Translations under genes and position numbers: made by a program
In this document: piece after piece, positions 17,580 to 27,457 of the stretch
How positions within the stretch are numbered: the first letter of the stretch is position 1
How the letters are laid out: each line of letters starts with the position of its first letter
Source: Alphaproteobacteria bacterium
GTDB lineage: Bacteria; Pseudomonadota; Alphaproteobacteria; CALKHQ01
DNA: 64,000 bases
Assembly: GCA_041396705.1 (NCBI GenBank)
Contig: JAWKYB010000003.1
Span: 28,985-92,984, forward strand
Reading direction: 5' to 3'
Notes under the pieces: model-generated
Told to the model about the DNA's origin: nothing
Seen by the model: only the letters and a program-made list of their open reading frames with translations
The model's database searches: none

Positions 17580-18359
<780 letters not shown>

Positions 18360-18401
18360 GTCGGCAAGCTCAATGTTTTCTGTCTTTACAGGATGTTACG
18401 G

Positions 18402-19070
18402 TCAGTACTTGAGATACGCATAGCGCCGCTCCAGCCGTCCGCCCAGCCACGACACGGCATAGCAGATCGCGAAATAGACCACGGCGGCGATCAGATAGAA
18501 CGGGATCGGCTTGTAGGTGCGGCCGATGATCTGCTGGGTGGCGAGCAGCAGCTCGACCACGCCGATCACCGACAGCAGCGACGACGCCTTGATGATCTCG
18601 ACCGCCGTGTTGACCCAGGGCGGCAGGATGCGGCGGGCGGCCTGGGGCAGCACGACGTACCAGACCCGCTGCCAGAAGCCGAGGCCGATCGACTTGGCCG
18701 CCTCGGTCTGGCCGACGGGGATCGAGGCGATGGCCCCGCGCGCCAGCTCGGCGATGTGCGCGGTGCAGAAGCCGGCGAGGGCGACCGCACCGGCCTCGAA
18801 CGCGGCGATGTCGAGGCCGACCAGGCCGAGGCCGTAGAAGCTGAAGAACACCAGCACCAGCACCGGGATGCCGCGCATCACGTCGACATAGGCCCGCGCC
18901 GGTATCCGGACCGCCAGGTTGCCGTAAGCCAGCGCTAGGCCCAGCAGCAGGCCCAGCACCGTACCGATCGCGATCGCGATGGCAGAGACCAGCGCCGTGT
19001 TGGCCAGCCCGTCCAGCATGGCGAACCGCGCCACCCACAGCTGCTCCCAGAAGCCCGGTTGTCCGCCCAC
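18402..19070 (-). CDS. Amino-acid ABC transporter permease (His/Glu/Gln/Arg/opine family).
   Basis: Multi-TM protein with the EAA-like loop ELARGAIASIPVGQTEAAKSIG. Confidence 0.8.
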   Translation of the reverse strand: MGGQPGFWEQLWVARFAMLDGLANTALVSAIAIAIGTVLGLLLGLALAYGNLAVRIPARAYVDVMRGIPVLVLVFFSFYGLGLVGLDIAAFEAGAVALAGFCTAHIAELARGAIASIPVGQTEAAKSIGLGFWQRVWYVVLPQAARRILPPWVNTAVEIIKASSLLSVIGVVELLLATQQIIGRTYKPIPFYLIAAVVYFAICYAVSWLGGRLERRYAYLKY

Positions 19071-19079
19071 CGCCGGCCC

Positions 19080-19745
19080 CTAGCGGATGCTTGCATAGCG
19101 CCGCTCGACCTGGCGCAGCATGAGGGCGATGGCGTAGCAGACGGCGAGATACAGCGCGCTCGCCACCGTCCAGGTCTCGATCACGCGAAAGGTGTTCACG
19201 TTGATCTGGCGCGCCTCGAAGGTCAGCTCCGGCACCGCGATCGCGGCGGCCAGCGAGGTGTCCTTGAACAGCGAGATGAAGTTCGACGACAGCGCCGGCA
19301 GTGTGATGCGGAACATCACCGGCAGCACGACATAGCGCTGGCGCTGCAGCGGCATCAGGCCGATCGCCTTGCCGGCCTCGACATATTGCGTCGGGATCGA
19401 ACCGAGGCCGGCACGGAACACCTCGGTCAGATAGGCGCCGGCATAGAGCGCCAGCGTCAGCATGAACGAATCGTACTTGTCGAGAAAACGGATGCCGATC
19501 TCCGGCAGGCCGAAATAGACGAAGAAGATCAGCAGCAGGATCGGCACGTTGCGGATCGCCTCGACATAGGCGGCGACCGCCCAGCGCAACGGCGCGATCT
19601 GCGAGGTGCGGCCATAGGCGCAGGCCAGCCCGATGACCGCACCGACCAGCAGCGAGATCACCGCCATCAGCAGGCCGAGGCCGAGGCCGCCCAGCAGATT
19701 GTCGAATTCCCGCCAGACGGGATCGAAGTTGAAGTGATAGTCCAC
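19080..19745 (-). CDS. Amino-acid ABC transporter permease, second subunit.
   Basis: TM protein with loop EVFRAGLGSIPTQYVEAGKAIG. Confidence 0.8.
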   Translation of the reverse strand: MDYHFNFDPVWREFDNLLGGLGLGLLMAVISLLVGAVIGLACAYGRTSQIAPLRWAVAAYVEAIRNVPILLLIFFVYFGLPEIGIRFLDKYDSFMLTLALYAGAYLTEVFRAGLGSIPTQYVEAGKAIGLMPLQRQRYVVLPVMFRITLPALSSNFISLFKDTSLAAAIAVPELTFEARQINVNTFRVIETWTVASALYLAVCYAIALMLRQVERRYASIR

Positions 19746-19796
19746 GCCGTGCGCAGGCGGCGGCCGGGCGCGCGGACCGCCCGGCCGCGCAGCTCG

Positions 19797-20708
19797 TCAG
19801 GCGTACTCGACCGGGAAGCCGGTCCGCGGCGGCGGCACGTCGGCGCCGAACCACTTCTTGAACGAAGCCTGGTAGCTGAGGAAATCGACTCCGGTCATCG
19901 CCTCGTGCAGCACCGAGTTGACGAAGTTCAGCCAGACCTGATCGCCGGGTTTGACCGCGGCGGCGTAGGAGTTCGGCATCCAGCCATAGCCCGAATCGAC
20001 ATAGCGGTCCGGGAACTGGGCAAGCAGCCAGCCGATGGTCGACTGGTCCAGCGCCGCCGCGTGGGCGCGGCCGGAGTTGAGCGCCTGGATTTCGGCGTCG
20101 ACGCTCTCATACTGGTCGACCTTGGCATCGGGCAGCGCCAGACGGATCCAGTCCTCGATGAACACGTTCTGCAGCGCGGAGACGGTGATGTCGGCGCCGC
20201 CGGCCTTGAGCTGGTCGTAGGTCTGGATGTCCTCGCCCTTCATGAGCATGAGGCCGACGCCTTCGCGGTAGTACGGAATGGTGAACTCGACCTGCTGGGC
20301 GCGCCCCGCCGTCACCGTCATGAACTGGAAGATCACGTCGACCTTGTCGGTGGCCAGGTTCGGGATGCGGGCGTCGGAGGCGCCGATCACGAACTCCACT
20401 TTCTGGTCGTCGTCGAACAGGCCCTTGGCCAGCAGCCGGGCCATGTCGATGTCCATGCCCTGCAGGCCGCCCGCCGCGTCCTCGAAATGCCAGGGCGGGT
20501 TGGTGCTGCCGGTGCCGACGATCACGTGGCCGCGCTCGAGCACCGCCTGCAGCCGGCCGCCGGCCGTCTGGGCCGCTGCCTTGCGGGCGCTGACCCCGAG
20601 CCCGGCCGCACCGGCGATCGCGGCGGCGCCCGCCACGCCCAGCGACGACAAGGTCAGCATGTCGCGCCTGTTGACGCCGTCTCGGTCACGCTCTGGCTTT
20701 TCGGTCAT
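19797..20708 (-). CDS. Amino-acid ABC transporter substrate-binding protein with a Tat signal.
   Basis: MTEKPERDRDGVNRRDMLTLSSLGVAGAAAIAGAAG is a twin-arginine signal. The mature part has the SBP family 3 fold. Confidence 0.8.
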   Translation of the reverse strand: MTEKPERDRDGVNRRDMLTLSSLGVAGAAAIAGAAGLGVSARKAAAQTAGGRLQAVLERGHVIVGTGSTNPPWHFEDAAGGLQGMDIDMARLLAKGLFDDDQKVEFVIGASDARIPNLATDKVDVIFQFMTVTAGRAQQVEFTIPYYREGVGLMLMKGEDIQTYDQLKAGGADITVSALQNVFIEDWIRLALPDAKVDQYESVDAEIQALNSGRAHAAALDQSTIGWLLAQFPDRYVDSGYGWMPNSYAAAVKPGDQVWLNFVNSVLHEAMTGVDFLSYQASFKKWFGADVPPPRTGFPVEYA

Positions 20709-21344
20709 GGCTGAACCTCCCCTGTCATGCCATTCGCCGCCATGGCCGGCGGCCATCGCCGACAATGCACCGGGCCGCAGCACGCGGCAAGCGCTGCCCG
20801 AGCGGGCCGCACCGGCCGCCGCAGCGCATCGGCCGGAACCCGGTCGCAATGCAGCACTGCGCGCGCGGGACCGCGTCGAGGAAAACCGCGCAATGCTCAA
20901 AATGGATGACCGGCGCGAATACTACCCGATCGGGTAGTTTATCGGTTAACTACGTTGCGGCGTCAGATTGCGCGTGTGGAATGCCACATTTTCACTGCTC
21001 ACATTCGTGTGACATTCGCCTAAAGAAACTGTCATTACGATCTGATAAGGTGTAACACAGCGACGGGGGATTTCGGTTAGCATCCTGACCGCTGGCACGG
21101 TGTCCCGCCCGCGCAAACCGTTGAAATGACGGTATATGCGGGGCGCGGACGCATGATGCACGGTAGCGGAGACGAGCCGGATACCGGGGCAGGGTTCGCA
21201 CATTTCGCGCCCTGCCGAGCCACTGCGAAAGGAGGTGCCATCGCGAGGGCAGTCACGTTCATAAGTACGCCTAAATTGGTCGGTACCGCTGTCGGCGGTG
21301 CCAATTGGCATTGATCGTTCGTTCCCTGGGGGGGGGTACACGCA
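20709..21344. promoter_or_regulatory. 636 bp intergenic region upstream of the ABC operon (leftward) and of the LuxR gene (rightward).
   Basis: An AT-rich patch at 20940-21060 carries the inverted repeat TGTGGaatgCCACA (20975-20988) and direct repeats ACATTCG at 21001 and 21012, plus related ACATTTT and TCATTACG. Confidence 0.4.
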
Positions 21345-22196
21345 ATGCGACAGTTAGTCGTTCTGGAGCCGAGCAGGCTCGTCCGCGAGGGTATCTCGCA
21401 TCTGTTGGCCGAACACGGCTATGCGGTCGTCGAACAGACCGCCGTCAACGATCCGGACCAGGATCCGGTATCCGACGACAGCATCGATCTCGTCCTGAGC
21501 GAGCTGCCCGGTCCGCGCTACGACATGACCGAGTGGCTGAAGCGAATCGCGGCCTTCTATCCGAAGGCCAGGATCGTGCTGTTGACCGGGCGCTGCGACG
21601 ATCCGGACACGTTGCGCGAGGCGCTGGCTTGCGGCGCCTTCGGCTATATCGACAAGGATCTGTCTGCCGACGCGGTATGCGCCACCATCGACGCGGTGCT
21701 GCACGGGCAGATCGTGTATCCGCGCGAGCTGCGCGACTGCCTGGTCGGCGACGGCCGGGCACGGGCAGGGCGGGCGGCGCCTGCGGTCCGCGTTGCGGTC
21801 GGCGAATCGGTGCCGGCCGTGCGCATCGCGGCGGTCGGCAACGTCGTCGACCTGCGCCAGCCGAACGGCACGGCCGTGCATGCCGGTCCTGTGGCAGCCG
21901 AGGCGGCGGCACCGCGGGTGCCGGCGCCGTCGAAACCCGCGTTGGCAGGCGCGGGCAGGTTGCAGCAGTTCGGGCTGTCGCACCGCGAGGACGAGATCCT
22001 GCGTCATGTGGCGCGCGGCCACGCCAACAAGATCATCGCAAACGAGCTGAACATCAGCGAAGCGACGGTGAAGTCCCATCTGAAGAGCCTGCTGCGTAAG
22101 CTCAACTTCACCAACCGCACCCAGGCCGCGATCTGGGCGGTGAGCCAATATGGCAGCGCCGCCGGCGGCATGGATCCCGGTGCGCGCACCGCGTGA
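21345..22196 (+). CDS. LuxR/GerE-family transcriptional regulator with an atypical (aspartate-less) receiver domain.
   Basis: The N-terminus has receiver-like topology but VVLEPS replaces the acidic DD pocket, and DLVLSELPGP lacks the phospho-acceptor Asp. The C-terminal HTH is LSHREDEILRHVARGHANKIIANELNISEATVKSHLKSLLRKLNFTNRTQAAIWA. Confidence 0.75.
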   Translation: MRQLVVLEPSRLVREGISHLLAEHGYAVVEQTAVNDPDQDPVSDDSIDLVLSELPGPRYDMTEWLKRIAAFYPKARIVLLTGRCDDPDTLREALACGAFGYIDKDLSADAVCATIDAVLHGQIVYPRELRDCLVGDGRARAGRAAPAVRVAVGESVPAVRIAAVGNVVDLRQPNGTAVHAGPVAAEAAAPRVPAPSKPALAGAGRLQQFGLSHREDEILRHVARGHANKIIANELNISEATVKSHLKSLLRKLNFTNRTQAAIWAVSQYGSAAGGMDPGARTA

Positions 22197-22345
22197 ACCG
22201 GTCCGGGCCCAGCACCCGGGCGCACGAATCCGAACCGGCCGGACGGGGCCCTTACTGGTTGCCGTCCGGCCGGCGGAGGACGCGGGACATGCAGCGATCC
22301 CGCGTGTGGCGTCGGCCGGCGCCGTGCGCCGGCCTGCGGTCCGGG

Positions 22346-22855
22346 CTAGCGCGACTCGTCGGCCGGGCCGATCTGCAGCACCGCGGCCTGCTGCACCCAG
22401 GCGTTGACCGGCGAGGGCTGGTGGCCGCGCAGGATCCAGCCCTGTGCCGGCACCGGCAGGCCGGAGGCCATCGCGGTCCATGCGTCGATCGAGGCGGCCG
22501 GGTTGGGAATCATGCCGACGCCGATCGAGCCGGTTTCCGCCAGCGCATGGTAGTTCCAGCCGCGCAGGCTGCGGCCGCCGGCGCCGAGAATGGTCGAGGT
22601 GCGCGAGCGGACCACGGCCAGGCCGTTGGCGCCGCGCTGCACGTCGACCAGCGCGCCGCTGGAATCGCGCAGGAAGAACTCCGGCCGGTTGCCGGTCAGC
22701 TGCTCGTCGATGATGGCCTCGCGGTAGCCCGCGCTCATCCCGACCGACCCGCCGCCGCGGCTGAAGTTGAACGGCTCGTTGAACAGCTGGGCCTGCGCGG
22801 GCGCGACCAGCGCGCCGGCCGCCAATGCGATGCCGGCGACAAGGACCTTGAGCAT
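22346..22855 (-). CDS. Secreted protein, 169 aa, with signal peptide MLKVLVAGIALAAGALVAPAQA and a CsgF-like mature N-terminus (paralog A).
   Basis: Strong RBS: AAAGGAG, 7 nt, ATG. The mature protein starts QLFNEPFNFSRGGG. It has curlin-like SxxxxxQxGxxNxxA segments. Confidence 0.6.
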   Translation of the reverse strand: MLKVLVAGIALAAGALVAPAQAQLFNEPFNFSRGGGSVGMSAGYREAIIDEQLTGNRPEFFLRDSSGALVDVQRGANGLAVVRSRTSTILGAGGRSLRGWNYHALAETGSIGVGMIPNPAASIDAWTAMASGLPVPAQGWILRGHQPSPVNAWVQQAAVLQIGPADESR

Positions 22856-23452
22856 GGGGGTACTCCTTTGGTGTGCAATCAGCTCCGGGCTTTGCCGGTT
22901 CCCCCATAGGTATTCAACCAAAGGGGGAGGTTCAAGGAAAATGCAGATCGCAGACCGGCAGGTAATGCGTTCAAAGTGTTAGTGTTTTTATTCTACCGCG
23001 CCACCGGCGAATCCGCGAAGCGCTGAGGAATCAAGGCCCGCCGCCTGATGTGGACGCGCTGCGGCCGAGCGGATTCTCTCACATGAAAAATTCTTACCGC
23101 GGCCGCGGCCCTGCAGCCGGGCGCACCGCGACGGACCCGGATTCGCCGGCCGCGGTGCCCGACCGGCTCCTCGGCCCGTCGGAGGGAGTCATCCCTTGGC
23201 ATGAATGCGGCGATCAGCCTTGAGGGCTAGTCAGCAGCGAGGTCATCTTTTGTAGTACAGATCCGGGTGCATGCCGGATCATCCCTTGCGATTAGTACGT
23301 TATCGAAATTGTACAAACTGTCATGATTGCTATGATAGAAAACGAACACAAGAAAACGGCGAATTTTCCTGGTGTTCCCTGGGTCTTGGTGGGAATTCGC
23401 TCTCACACTGCATGTCGAATATCACGCGACTCAATGCGTGAGGAGAGGTCCG
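22856..23452. promoter_or_regulatory. 597 bp divergent intergenic region between the CsgF-like gene (leftward) and the CsgG-family gene (rightward), with strongly AT-rich patches.
   Basis: Positions 22960-23000 and 23220-23400 are AT-rich in a roughly 70% GC background. Likely promoters and regulator-binding sites. Confidence 0.45.
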
Positions 23453-24280
23453 ATGCGATTTGGATTGAAGATTGTTGGTCTCGTTGGCCTGGGCCTGGTC
23501 GTTGCCGGCTGCGCGCCGCGGGCGATCTATGGCGATAACGGCGTTCAGCCGCAGTACAGCTTTCCGGTGACCAACAACGACACGCCCTACAGCGCCTGCC
23601 TGCGCAACCTGGCGGCGCTGCCCGGCAACAACCTGCCGGTCATCGCGGTCGGCGAGGTCTCCGACAAGACCGGCCAGATCAACTACGAGGAAAACGGCAA
23701 TGCGCTGAGCCAGGGCGCGGCCGAGATGATGACCAGCGCGCTGTTCCTGAGCGGCAAGGCCAATCTGGTCGAGCGCTTCGACCTGCGCGTGCCGCTGGCC
23801 GAGGTGTCGATGGCGGAGCAGGGCCTGCTCAATCGCGGCATCGACAGCTATCGCGGCCAGATCCCGGGCAGCGACTTCATCATCCTGGGGGCGCTGACCG
23901 AGCTCAACTACAACATCACCAGTGACGGTGCCGGCCTGTGGATCATGGGCATGGGCGCCGGTGCAAGGACAGTCGTAATCAACGTGGCGTTGGATGCGCG
24001 GGTGGTCAACTCGCGCAACTTCACCGTTGTTTACGCGAAGTCACTTCAGAAGCAGGTATATGGCTTCGAAGTGGAGGCCAATGTGTTCCGTTTCTTTGGC
24101 AACACCTTGGTCGAGTTTGACGCCGGTTCGGTGCGGAACGAACCGCTCCAGATCGCCGTCCGCTCCGTCGTCGAGATGTTCGTGTACGGCATGATGACGG
24201 AGGCGTTCGGGCTGCCCACCACGCCTGAGTGCGAGCTGGTGTCGCTCGAATATCCGTACACGTTGCAAACGGAGGACTAA
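23453..24280 (+). CDS. CsgG/HfaB-family outer-membrane lipoprotein secretion channel, 275 aa.
   Basis: The lipobox is LVVAGC. Blocks align with E. coli CsgG: VGEVSDKTGQ / VYNIQDETGQ, GFEVEANVFRF / SYEVQAGVFRF and SVRNEPLQIAVRSVVE / YTSNEPVMLCLMSAIE. The RBS is AGGAGAGG. Confidence 0.85.
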   Translation: MRFGLKIVGLVGLGLVVAGCAPRAIYGDNGVQPQYSFPVTNNDTPYSACLRNLAALPGNNLPVIAVGEVSDKTGQINYEENGNALSQGAAEMMTSALFLSGKANLVERFDLRVPLAEVSMAEQGLLNRGIDSYRGQIPGSDFIILGALTELNYNITSDGAGLWIMGMGAGARTVVINVALDARVVNSRNFTVVYAKSLQKQVYGFEVEANVFRFFGNTLVEFDAGSVRNEPLQIAVRSVVEMFVYGMMTEAFGLPTTPECELVSLEYPYTLQTED

Positions 24281-24284
24281 GTCA

Positions 24285-25034
24285 ATGCAGCGTAAGCATC
24301 TGTTGGCCGCGGCGAGCGTGATCACGCTCGCCACGGGCCTGGCGGCGCCGTCCGCCCAGGCTTTCGATAGGGTCTGGTGGGACTGGAACCTCGATGTCGA
24401 CACGAAGGTCGACGTCAGGGTCGACGTCGACATCAACGTCGATCCCAAGGGCGCGGTGATCTCCGAGACCGACCAGTACTTCAAGGGCTCGCAGGAAGCG
24501 ACCGCGAAGATCGGCGACGTCTATGTCGATCCGAAGGGCTATCACCTGGACGGTGCCACCGACCTCGGCGAGGTCAACAACGTGGCGGCCGCGCTCGGCA
24601 ACTCGAACGCGATCACCTCGGACTTCTCCGTGCAGTCCGACGTCGACCAGGATGCCATCGGCACCGCCTGGTACGGCGCCGACTTCGAGGCGACCGCGAA
24701 AGTCTATGACATCGACAATGCGTCGGTCAGCAACGTCGCACAGGCGATCGCGAACTCGAACTCGATCACCGTCGACCCGCTGCGCGAGCATGGCTGGTAC
24801 CACAGCAGCTCCGACGACGCGCTGATCATCAGCAATGTCGAGCAGTCGGCCTATGCCAACGGCAGCGCCTACGCCTCGGTCTACGACGTCACCATCCGTG
24901 GCTTCGGCGACCTCGGCTCCGGTGACAACGAGCTGAACCGGGCTCTGGTCACCAACTCGGCGATCGCCGCCGGCAACGTGAACAACATCACCCTGGTGAA
25001 CGGCGCCATCGCCTTCCCCGATCAGGACAACTGA
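24285..25034 (+). CDS. Secreted curlin-like repeat protein, 249 aa. It is the candidate amyloid or cargo subunit for the CsgG-family channel.
   Basis: The signal peptide ends AQA. Four or more degenerate repeats SNVAQAIANSNSIT, NNVAAALGNSNAIT, TNSAIAAGNVNNIT and SNVEQSAYANGSAY resemble the NxAxxxQ curlin half-repeat. The gene starts 5 nt after the CsgG stop. Confidence 0.55.
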   Translation: MQRKHLLAAASVITLATGLAAPSAQAFDRVWWDWNLDVDTKVDVRVDVDINVDPKGAVISETDQYFKGSQEATAKIGDVYVDPKGYHLDGATDLGEVNNVAAALGNSNAITSDFSVQSDVDQDAIGTAWYGADFEATAKVYDIDNASVSNVAQAIANSNSITVDPLREHGWYHSSSDDALIISNVEQSAYANGSAYASVYDVTIRGFGDLGSGDNELNRALVTNSAIAAGNVNNITLVNGAIAFPDQDN

Positions 25035-25147
25035 TCGCAGGGCTGTTGCTCGCAACGCAAGGGCAGGGGCGGCGTTCGCGCCGCCCCCGTCCGCCAAGAC
25101 AGGGAATCGCGCTCCCGACCGCGCCGACGGCGCAGGGAGCGAACGCA

Positions 25148-25582
25148 ATGGGGGTAATGATGACTGCACATGCGAAGACGCGGGGCCTGACCGCCGTGAC
25201 GGCGGTTGCCGTTCTCGCCGCGAGCGCCCTGTGGGCCGCGCCGGCCTCGGCCCAGATGTTCCGCGAGCCGTTCTCGTTCGGCGCGCGCAGCTCGGCCAGC
25301 CTGGCGATCTTCATGCGTCAGCGCGACGACGCGCTCAGCGCGTCCTCGTCCGGCGTCGGGATCGGCAGCGGCACCTCGCAGGCGCTGGTCTGCGGCAGCA
25401 GCGGCGGCACCACCGCGTCGACTGCGGCCGGCAACATCACCTGCGTGCTCGCCGGCAACAACACCAACGTCGTGGTGAACAGCCACCAGGACTCGACCGG
25501 CGACCAGAATGCCGATGCCAACACGCACCAGACGGCGGCGGAGACCATCGGCGACATCCTGAACGGCGAGCCGAACGGCTAG
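25148..25582 (+). CDS. Secreted protein, 144 aa, with a CsgF-like mature N-terminus (paralog B).
   Basis: RBS: GGGAG, 8 nt, ATG. The signal peptide ends ASA. The mature protein starts QMFREPFSFGARSS and is Gly/Ser/Thr-rich with 2 Cys. Confidence 0.55.
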   Translation: MGVMMTAHAKTRGLTAVTAVAVLAASALWAAPASAQMFREPFSFGARSSASLAIFMRQRDDALSASSSGVGIGSGTSQALVCGSSGGTTASTAAGNITCVLAGNNTNVVVNSHQDSTGDQNADANTHQTAAETIGDILNGEPNG

Positions 25583-25777
25583 CGGTCGTACGCTCGCGGC
25601 CCGCGGCTCGGCGCCGCAGGCAGCATTCGGGTCAGTCCGGCGTCGCGCACGGCACCGCAGGGTGCGGGGGCAGATGGGCGGCAGCGCGGCAATCGGCGCT
25701 GCCGGCGACGACCGGCCGGGCCCGGTACGCAAAGCCGAACCGGGATCGCATGCCCGGAGCACCGGAGGAGGAACCAG

Positions 25778-26173
25778 ATGCGCCAGATCGTCATCCTGTC
25801 CATGCTGCCGCTGCTGGCGGGCTGCGGCCTGCCGCCGGCGGTCGCCATCGCGTCCTATGCGGTCGACGGCGTGCTGCTGGCCGCAACCGGCAAGACCACC
25901 AAGGACCATGCGCTGTCGGTCGCCATGCAGCAGGACTGCAACATGCTTCACGTCATCGCCGGCGAGTCGATCTGCCAGGACTACGAGCCGACCCAGCGTG
26001 CGGCGATGGCGATGGCGTCGAGCGGGCCGGGCGAAGAGGCGCTGACCACCACGTCCGACGGGCGGATCATCCGGGTGGCGGCGCAGCCGACGCCGTCGCT
26101 CGACGGCGGCCTGATCGCGGCGGCGCCGCGTGCCGGCCAGGCTGCCGCCGGCGATGCGGCCGCCGCGCACTAG
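25778..26173 (+). CDS. Small lipoprotein, 131 aa, last gene of the cluster.
   Basis: RBS: GGAGGAGG, 6 nt, ATG. The lipobox is LLAGC. Two further Cys are present. Confidence 0.55.
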   Translation: MRQIVILSMLPLLAGCGLPPAVAIASYAVDGVLLAATGKTTKDHALSVAMQQDCNMLHVIAGESICQDYEPTQRAAMAMASSGPGEEALTTTSDGRIIRVAAQPTPSLDGGLIAAAPRAGQAAAGDAAAAH

Positions 26174-26614: not shown

Positions 26615-27457
26615 TCAGGACAGGGTGATGACCACCCGCCTGTTCGCCGCGTTGCGCACGCCATCGCCGGTGGCCTCGGCCGGCTCGCGCTCGCCGACGG
26701 CATCCATCTGGATCCGGCCGGCGTCGACGCCACGGGCGACCATCAGGTCGCGCACCGCCTCGGCCCGAGCCCGCGACAGCAGCTGGTTGTATTCCGGCGC
26801 GCCGGCGGTGTCGGTATAGCCGACCACCGCGATCGGCAGCGTCGGGTCGGCCAGCGCGGCGACGACGGCCTGCTCGACCACGGCGCGGCCGGCGGTGGTC
26901 AGCGCGGCGCTGTCGAAATCGAACAGGATCACGAAATTCTGCGCGTCCGCCGCGCCCGGGCCGGTCTGCGGCCGGCCGCCTGCCGCCATCAGGCATTCGT
27001 AGAAGCCGTCGCGGCAGACCATGATACGGGAATCGTCCTGGTCCTCTTCGGCTTCGGCGATCCAGCAGTCGTAAAGCGCCTGGCAATGCGCCACCAGCTC
27101 GGGCTGGAAGTCGCGGCCGCCGCTGTACAGGATCGCGACCAACTGGGCCCGCGCCTCGATCAGTTCCTGGACGACCGACTCCGGGACGGCACGCGCGGCG
27201 ACCTCGTCGGGCAGCACCTGCTGTCCGTAAGACGCCGCCAGGCCCTTCAGCGCGAAATAGTCGGCGTCGGTCCAGTCGCCGCGGCCGGCCTCGAACACCG
27301 CCAGGTCCTGATACTCGTCCATCAGCGCCACGTTGTGGCGATGGCCGACTCGCGGGGTCTCCTGCAGCGTCTCGATATTCCAGGCGGTGGTGCAGCCCGA
27401 AGCCAGCAACACCGCCGCGATGGCAAGCACCAGCGGTTGCCACGATCGGATGGACAT
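26615..27457 (-). CDS. OmpA-family lipoprotein with a peptidoglycan-binding OmpA_C domain.
   Basis: The lipobox is LLASGC. The C-terminus reads FDFDSAAL...VVGYTDTAGAPEYNQLLSRARAEAVRDLMVARGV...NRRVVITL. Confidence 0.8.
   Translation of the reverse strand: MSIRSWQPLVLAIAAVLLASGCTTAWNIETLQETPRVGHRHNVALMDEYQDLAVFEAGRGDWTDADYFALKGLAASYGQQVLPDEVAARAVPESVVQELIEARAQLVAILYSGGRDFQPELVAHCQALYDCWIAEAEEDQDDSRIMVCRDGFYECLMAAGGRPQTGPGAADAQNFVILFDFDSAALTTAGRAVVEQAVVAALADPTLPIAVVGYTDTAGAPEYNQLLSRARAEAVRDLMVARGVDAGRIQMDAVGEREPAEATGDGVRNAANRRVVITLS

Follow-up and report, generated by a model that had tools for sequence, protein, structure and literature searches.

Gene content and distribution of the cassette

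The stretch of DNA considered here, 64,000 nucleotides of contig JAWKYB010000003.1 from a high-G+C alphaproteobacterial metagenome-assembled genome (MAG) and hereafter called the window, carries a cassette of genes arranged around a channel protein of the CsgG/HfaB family. Two small secreted proteins encoded in this cassette, labelled famA and famB, share one homologous N-terminal module on bodies that are, as judged from their profiles, otherwise unrelated. The genes of the window were read from a list of open reading frames (ORFs) together with Pfam and NCBIfam scans. Positions 22346 to 22855 encode, on the minus strand, the famA precursor (169 aa; P0007; R3F55_03555 at NCBI). On the forward strand there follow the channel gene (23453 to 24280), whose 275-aa product is an outer-membrane lipoprotein with the lipobox VVAG/C (a slash marks a predicted processing site here and below); the gene for a secreted repeat protein of 249 aa, a putative fibre or adhesin subunit (24285 to 25034); and the gene for the 140-aa famB precursor (25160 to 25582; P0001; R3F55_03570), a distantly HfaA-like protein. 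The names famA and famB are our own, given to two families that are orphans in Pfam: profile scans of 41 famA and 41 famB members, and of the repeat protein, returned no Pfam family, and three of the four core proteins belong to no Pfam or NCBIfam family.

The cassette was followed through 78 fetched stretches (±10 kb) around channel-gene homologues, taken from the 80 closest and containing no Caulobacterales, and gene content was established by local iterative searches across all ORFs. The same gene order recurs among these loci: a LuxR-type gene on the forward strand, usually placed directly upstream of famA; famA on the minus strand; often a second LuxR-type gene, also on the minus strand; and then channel, repeat protein and famB, all on the forward strand. 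All four core genes (famA, channel, repeat protein and famB) are present in 63 of the 78 loci, and carriage of the module by two proteins, which the earlier note on this DNA had regarded as an unusual duplication, is thus the ordinary arrangement. Taken gene by gene, famB is found in 75 loci, the repeat protein in 76 (its gene lies directly after the channel gene in 76/78) and a LuxR-type gene in 73; the gaps mostly coincide with contig ends.

The hosts of these loci include Thalassospira, Pelagibius, Algihabitans, Tistlia, Inquilinus, Oceanibaculum, Ferrovibrio and Aquibaculum, and also Parvibaculum, Micavibrio, Rhizomicrobium/Micropepsaceae and Neomegalonema. Carriers that can be cultivated include Thalassospira xianhensis, T. 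mesophila, Pelagibius litoralis DSM 21314, Algihabitans albus and Oceanibaculum pacificum. A reduced cassette is carried by five Vibrio alginolyticus plasmids; it consists of a channel (48.6% identity), a repeat protein and a famB-like protein, has no famA and no LuxR gene, and adjoins replication and partition genes (for example L159:5959-7891 on plasmid NZ_CP082309.1, with H2-H6 as similar matches). The channel gene is also present on a Photobacterium plasmid (H6). The cassette also occurs on contigs binned as Flavobacteriaceae (L059 and L069) and Actinomycetota (L074), with channels ~60% identical to the alphaproteobacterial ones; these are probably mis-binned contigs and no true occurrence in those phyla. 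The best explanation of the cassette as a whole is an uncharacterised secretion and assembly system of the CsgG/HfaB type (type VIII-like) that is widespread in the Alphaproteobacteria.

Processed N-termini and the shared module

Translation of the minus strand gives the famA precursor as MLKVLVAGIALAAGALVAPAQA/QLFNEPFNFSRGGGSVGMSAGYREAIIDEQL, with a leader ending in ...VAPAQA, and the famB precursor reads MTAHAKTRGLTAVTAVAVLAASALWAAPASA/QMFREPFSFGARSSASLAIFMRQRDDA, with a leader ending in ...AAPASA; NCBI places the start of the famB gene at 25160 and not at 25148, which leaves the mature end unaffected. Cleavage sites were predicted from the -3/-1 A-x-A rule after a hydrophobic stretch, combined with the onset of conservation at the following Gln. 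The predicted Sec signal peptide of famA (22790 to 22855, minus strand) accordingly has a hydrophobic core and then A-Q-A, with conservation beginning at the next residue, and among close orthologues a variable leader ending in A-x-A gives way to invariant sequence from the Gln onwards in 10/10 famA and 5/6 famB proteins. A heuristic scan of the 78 loci finds the A-x-A/motif pattern in 55 of 66 famA and 49 of 75 famB members. Globally, famA amounts to 142 representatives (at 50% identity) of 79-208 aa in 1.84 billion proteins, and the motif is present in 104 of 141 global representatives, with near-variants in most of the others.

The mature starts QLFNEPFNF and QMFREPFSF, proposed in the earlier note, are confirmed by the translation and by the conserved A-x-A/Gln pattern, and the conservation across orthologous loci that it had suggested checking is borne out by these counts. 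Its further statement that the motif lies exactly at the mature N-terminus describes the majority state and is not universal: in Micropepsaceae and on the Vibrio plasmids the P-Ar-x-F core (Ar, aromatic) lies 8-10 residues past the predicted cleavage site, the Vibrio famB protein having P-Y-D-F 10 residues beyond it. For famA an alternative cleavage, APA/QAQLF, is possible, in which case the motif would begin at +3.

The relationship between the two families was assessed by hhalign comparison of mature-sequence profiles from which the signal peptides had been removed. The profiles align over their first 28-35 positions only (P 8.3e-6, score 38.1), and 150 column-shuffled controls scored 9.3 ± 2.2, with a maximum of 15.9. 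Chance likeness of the two N-termini is ruled out by these values. The merging of famA and famB by jackhmmer is not a product of similar signal peptides, as the mature sequences still align. Because the alignment is confined to the first 28-35 positions, the bodies of the two proteins are taken to be unrelated. The profiles thus uphold the view that the two proteins share a paralogous N-terminal module and that their remainders are unrelated to one another.

The core of the module across both families, Q-h-x-x-x-P-[FYW]-x-F, opens with an invariant Gln and precedes a predicted helix. In the window the famA module comprises mature residues 1-35 (22685 to 22789, minus strand), made up of QLFNEPFNF, the Gly-rich SRGGGSVGMS and the predicted helix AGYREAIIDEQL, and the famB module comprises mature residues 1-30 (25253 to 25342, forward strand), made up of QMFREPFSF, GARSS and the predicted helix ASLAIFMRQRDDA. 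Most famA members have QLNN[KR]PFSF, or more broadly Q-[LMW]-N-N-[KR]-P-[FY]-S-F, continued by a Gly-rich stretch that closes with G-M-S and by A-G-R-Q-A-I-[IL]; most famB members have QMFEQPWGF, within the broader Q-M-[FY]-E-[QK]-P-[WFY]-[GS]-F-x-x-Q-N-R-A-S-[IL]-A-A-L-M-[KR]-Q. The motif F-x-x-P-x-F with a Gly-rich continuation had been described for both proteins. Its P-aromatic-x-F core does stand in both families, but the first Phe of F-x-x-P (the F-x-E-P-F form) is specific to the clade of the window, and the Gly-rich linker is a feature of famA only.

No part of famA is better conserved than the module, which has a column identity of 0.50 where the remaining positions have 0.31; N4, P6, F9, G17 and S19 are near-invariant. 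In famB the module is followed by a linker, a Cys-flanked segment (GN-x-x-C...Q-D-S-x-G-x-Q) and an acidic tail. The helix is predicted at low confidence, at precursor residues 42-54 in famA and 45-63 in famB, and AlphaFold2 models of the two precursors, built on alignments of 10 and 6 sequences, were unusable (mean predicted local distance difference test [pLDDT] scores of 38.5 and 42.0).

The channel and the repeat protein

Pfam CsgG (PF03783) matches the channel at 106 bits (2e-30; cutoff 20.8), and the protein has both this superfamily profile and a lipoprotein signal (lipobox L-V-V-A-G-C), in agreement with the earlier description of famA and famB as secreted partners of a CsgG-family channel. 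Its best-scoring NCBIfam model is HfaB (NF037935, an equivalog), at 170 bits and under the cutoff of 300. Homologues number 757, of which the best 120 are 57-100% identical to it, and NCBI names the protein 'CsgG/HfaB family protein'. The channel is the most conserved component of the cassette, with a column identity of 0.63 versus ~0.3 for its partners (0.50 for the famA module). E. coli CsgG was aligned with 33 HfaB-like proteins: the equivalents of CsgG F206 and F208 are kept in all 33 and that of N148 in 32 of them, and two Cys conserved in the HfaB-like subfamily (C49 and C260 of the 275-aa protein) align with residues other than Cys in E. coli CsgG.

The repeat protein has a conserved mature N-terminus of its own, A-x-A/F-D-x-V-x-W-x-W (FDRVWWDWN...), and contains the repeat A-x-A-[IV]-[GA]-N-x-x-[SN]-I some three times (a homologous gene is L024:10825-12117). 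This recurrent motif is its sole likeness to curlin, the curlin repeat (Pfam PF07012) finding no match in the repeat protein or in famB. In each of the three secreted proteins encoded by the cassette, an aromatic-x-aromatic pair lies within ~9 residues of the processed end. That famB corresponds to a single repeat of the repeat protein was considered and rejected as a demonstrated relationship, since a hidden Markov model (HMM) of the famB C-terminal segment found no match below E 0.05 among 77 repeat proteins. In the closest relative of the window locus (L001:1042-6205), channel and repeat-protein genes occur twice in tandem with identical repeat-protein N-termini, which points to a recent duplication or else to an artefact of assembly.

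Comparison with the holdfast anchor

In Caulobacter, the proteins HfaA, HfaD and HfaE need HfaB to reach the cell surface, where they anchor the holdfast, and multimerisation of HfaA depends on HfaD. The cassette recalls this holdfast anchor (Hfa) system of the Caulobacterales in that its channel scores best with the HfaB model, famB is weakly HfaA-like, and three small or repeat-containing secreted partners are present, as are HfaA, HfaD and HfaE there. The likeness of famB to NCBIfam HfaA (NF037934, an equivalog) is confined to its C-terminal part (model positions 53-115) and amounts to 22.8-24 bits; matches at E<=0.01 were obtained for 2/41 members (E 4e-5 to 9e-5). The two systems differ in that both scores lie under the equivalog cutoffs (170 < 300 for the channel; 24 < 50 for famB, with only those two members matching), in that famA and the repeat protein match nothing, and in that the hosts here are Rhodospirillales-like bacteria, Parvibaculum, Micavibrio, Micropepsaceae and Vibrio and not Caulobacterales. 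No holdfast-synthesis genes were seen in the inspected ORFs beside the locus, annotation not having extended to the whole window.

A correspondence between famA and HfaE is an unconfirmed lead. The C-terminal motifs PHPASQV, CNERSLLR and DGGVG have been described for HfaE (Chepkwony et al. preprint), and famA offers loose look-alikes of these: NPAASID and GWILRG in the window protein, and DGGVG in the wider family, although near the N-terminus. The global profile search with famA retrieved only famA itself (the 142 representatives) and nothing recognisably HfaE-like.

Neighbouring genes

The LuxR-type gene of the window (21345 to 22196, forward strand) encodes a LuxR/GerE response-regulator-like transcription factor (Pfam GerE 1.6e-19, Response_reg 3e-9). 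Its receiver reads as atypical, with Glu at the phospho-accepting Asp position (..DLVLSELPGP..) and no N-terminal acidic pair, and a long Ala/Pro/Arg-rich linker precedes the helix-turn-helix; it may be likened to atypical receivers such as that of CsgD. Downstream of famB lies a gene for a small lipoprotein of 131 aa (25778 to 26173, forward strand; lipobox LLAG/C), with homologues in the window, L001 and L002 only, and further on, at 26615 to 27457 on the minus strand, a gene for an OmpA-family protein whose N-terminal part is weakly CpaD-like (Pfam Pilus_CpaD, E 3e-4, below cutoff). Inspected ORFs on both flanks of the cassette resemble ABC-transporter genes. The G+C content of window positions 18001-26000, which take in the cassette and adjacent ABC-transporter genes, is 0.65-0.67, and that of the surrounding sequence is 0.70-0.74.

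Interpretation of the module

The N-terminal residues of CsgF bind inside the CsgG barrel in a 1:1 ratio and form a second constriction. The first 12 mature residues of CsgF form an aromatic loop that lines the CsgG barrel, with F24, F26 and F31 touching the wall; the free amino group of CsgF bonds N148, Q168 and D170 of CsgG, a four-residue loop (G32-P35) projects to the channel centre, and a helix (residues 36-46) leans on CsgG F206 and F208 (Zhang et al. 2020, PMC7304575). The cassette resembles the CsgF-CsgG system of E. coli curli in several respects. A gene for a CsgG-family lipoprotein channel lies beside genes for small Sec-dependent secreted proteins and for a LuxR-type regulator, which holds here the place of CsgD in the curli locus; the first ~35 mature residues form a separate unit in both, and the module has the same order of elements at similar length, namely an aromatic loop at the free N-terminus, a linker and a (low-confidence) predicted helix; and the HfaB-like channel keeps the equivalents of F206, F208 and N148. 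Family scans found no CsgE or CsgF gene in the cassette, which also differs from curli in having no CsgC and no curlin-repeat (PF07012) proteins, and in that two distinct proteins carry the module, whose core is Q-x4-P-[FYW]-x-F and not N-P-x-F-G-G-N-P.

We tentatively favour the reading, to which we would give somewhat less than an even chance, that the module serves both proteins as a common peptide for docking to the HfaB-like channel. The module would tether famA and famB to one partner, for which the lumen or rim of the channel is the likeliest candidate, and the differing C-terminal parts of the two proteins would then sit at the cell surface, where the HfaA-like famB would nucleate or anchor the repeat protein and famA would fill a second role. 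With its Cys-flanked segment and distant HfaA likeness, famB is the obvious candidate for nucleation or anchoring, a role that would parallel those proposed for CsgF and CsgB in curli and for HfaA and HfaD in Caulobacter. The module would then be CsgF-like in function and not CsgF by ancestry. The suggestion of the earlier note that the module provides two caps or adaptors for one channel would, in this light, be a reasonable analogy.

Docking is supported by the homology of the module between two families whose bodies differ, by its strong conservation within famA and by its tight linkage to the channel gene in a fixed gene order, and the pairing of a highly conserved channel with a conserved module is what would be expected of a receptor conserved together with its peptide; the absence of the module from the repeat protein argues against a generic export tag. 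We also count in favour of docking the CsgF-like layout, the retention of F206, F208 and N148, the absence of CsgE and CsgF, and the dependence of the Hfa proteins on HfaB. In its most specific form, which we regard as unlikely on balance but worth stating, the module would have arisen independently as the equivalent of the CsgF plug: a common peptide, carried by two different proteins, would occupy the nine sites of a single HfaB-like channel, and the resulting mixed or alternative caps would couple secretion to surface anchoring of the repeat adhesin.

Several observations weigh against the docking reading. Sequence comparison gives no sign of CsgF itself. Our E. coli CsgF and CsgG sequences matched the fetched enterobacterial loci at 100% identity, and a metagenome scan with E. 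coli CsgF recovered enterobacterial copies only (88-100% identical). A diverse set of eight CsgF proteins was therefore compared as well, namely that of E. coli and seven from Aeromonas, Pseudomonas, Caballeronia, Burkholderia and Spirosoma plasmids, covering three bacterial classes (Gamma- and Betaproteobacteria and Bacteroidota). These eight share the N-terminus L-V-Y-x-P-x-N-P-[NS]-F-G-G-N-[PT]-x-N...L-L-x-x-A-x-A-Q-[ND], and the signature N-P-x-F-G-G-N-[PT] with L-L-x-x-A-x-A-Q-[ND] is absent from famA and famB. Pfam CsgF (PF10614) matched 0/41 famA and 0/41 famB members at E<=10, and the window proteins were unmatched at E<=1. Comparison of CsgF profiles with either family by hhalign, at full length or by N-terminus, gave P 0.05-0.89, and with the diverse set P 0.17-0.83 (0.17-0.33 for N-termini alone); scores were 1-16, within the shuffled background, and the N-termini were never paired. 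Residues 1-40 of E. coli CsgF score against the module HMMs like their own shuffles (570 and 491 of 2000 shuffles equalled or exceeded the real score), and profile searches of PDB sequences did not retrieve CsgF. As no significant profile similarity was found, the sequence resemblance to the CsgF plug claimed in the earlier note is refuted by the very test that it had named; famA and famB lie outside the CsgF family as far as sequence can tell, their likeness to it being no better than chance.

The channel contributes further contrary points. In the ungapped alignment the HfaB-like proteins have V and I where CsgG has Q168 and D170, two of the residues bonded by the amino group of CsgF, although the strand register in this segment rests on the alignment itself. 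The constriction loop is three residues shorter than that of CsgG and is without Y66, N70 and F71 (the Y-x-x-x-N-F residues), and the gate of the channel itself may differ from that of CsgG. The residue pattern as a whole would allow another peptide to dock at a comparable site, but it proves nothing. The module core, moreover, lies away from the extreme N-terminus in Vibrio and Micropepsaceae; docking is read from sequence, the AlphaFold2 monomer models having pLDDT of 38-42; and the conserved aromatic N-terminus of the repeat protein means that conserved N-termini could be a general export or assembly feature. Two hints of co-adaptation, which count in favour of docking, are weak. The famA and famB 9-mers are slightly more alike within one genome than between genomes (permutation p ~0.009, from genomes that are not independent). 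In L002 (MAG CBDDFZ010000001.1) one cassette has two channel paralogues (P0024 and P0025, at ~10001 and 12666), and its famA (P0137, L002:5840-6340) has the divergent N-terminus QADPTGKVFEFHQP and adjoins the paralogue that, alone among the 33, has Ser at the position of N148; co-adaptation is one way to read this single example.

The module may instead be a transient export or targeting signal, read by the HfaB-like channel or by a periplasmic factor and without a role after export, an alternative that we judge unlikely though by no means negligible: all three secreted proteins have conserved motifs at the predicted mature N-terminus, each with the aromatic-x-aromatic pair, and none of the Caulobacter proteins HfaA, HfaD and HfaE reaches the surface independently of HfaB. 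The motif of the repeat protein is a different one, however, so that there is no single common tag, and the conserved predicted helix and the invariant G-M-S of famA exceed the usual needs of a simple tag. In curli, the N-terminal 22 residues of CsgA (N22) target CsgA to CsgG. This segment, like the module, is a short mature-N-terminal part of a CsgG-dependent protein and distinct from the protein body, but it is Gly/Asn-rich and not predicted to be helical, whereas the module combines aromatic residues, a Pro and a predicted helix and sits on two minor proteins and not on the repeat protein.

Somewhat less probable again, in our estimate, is that the module binds the repeat protein (perhaps at its FD-x-V-x-W-x-W region) or links famA to famB, as an element of fibre assembly or capping. 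The genes for famB and the repeat protein are always adjacent and occur without famA on the Vibrio plasmids, HfaA multimerisation needs HfaD in Caulobacter, and the repeat-family HMM weakly matches the Vibrio famB protein (E 2.4e-5 in a two-sequence search); on the other side, conservation is far weaker in the repeat protein than in the channel, and strong in the module core. That famA and famB are highly diverged true CsgF homologues, with the module a CsgF plug by descent, we hold to be very improbable. The position of the module at the processed N-terminus, its Pro followed by a Phe, the predicted helix downstream and the neighbouring CsgG-family gene speak for such descent, but the Pfam CsgF model, reported to detect 172/172 known CsgF proteins (Dueholm et al. 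2012; a sensitivity of 100% for established curli systems), matched 0/82 members here; the hhalign and shuffle results point the same way, and the C-terminal domains are unrelated.

The docking reading, for all that its binding partner and anchoring role are proposals, bears on a question wider than this cassette. Most Pfam CsgG matches lie outside curli operons (Dueholm et al. 2012): channels of this family are far more widespread than curli, and the products that they secrete, and the means by which these are retained, are mostly uncharacterised. A short conserved module on two unrelated partners is a handle on this problem, suited to peptide binding, inhibition of assembly and cryo-EM. Pores of CsgG and CsgF serve in nanopore sequencing, and a different natural peptide that binds the lumen would be of practical interest for that reason. 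The cassette itself is found in many marine and soil Alphaproteobacteria and is carried on Vibrio plasmids, and it may inform our understanding of the Caulobacter holdfast anchor and of the link between HfaB and its clients. If the module does prove to be an independent counterpart of the CsgF plug, N-terminal peptides that dock in the lumen would be a general principle of CsgG-family channels, and the attachment of holdfast-type anchor proteins to HfaB could be described by a concrete model open to testing.

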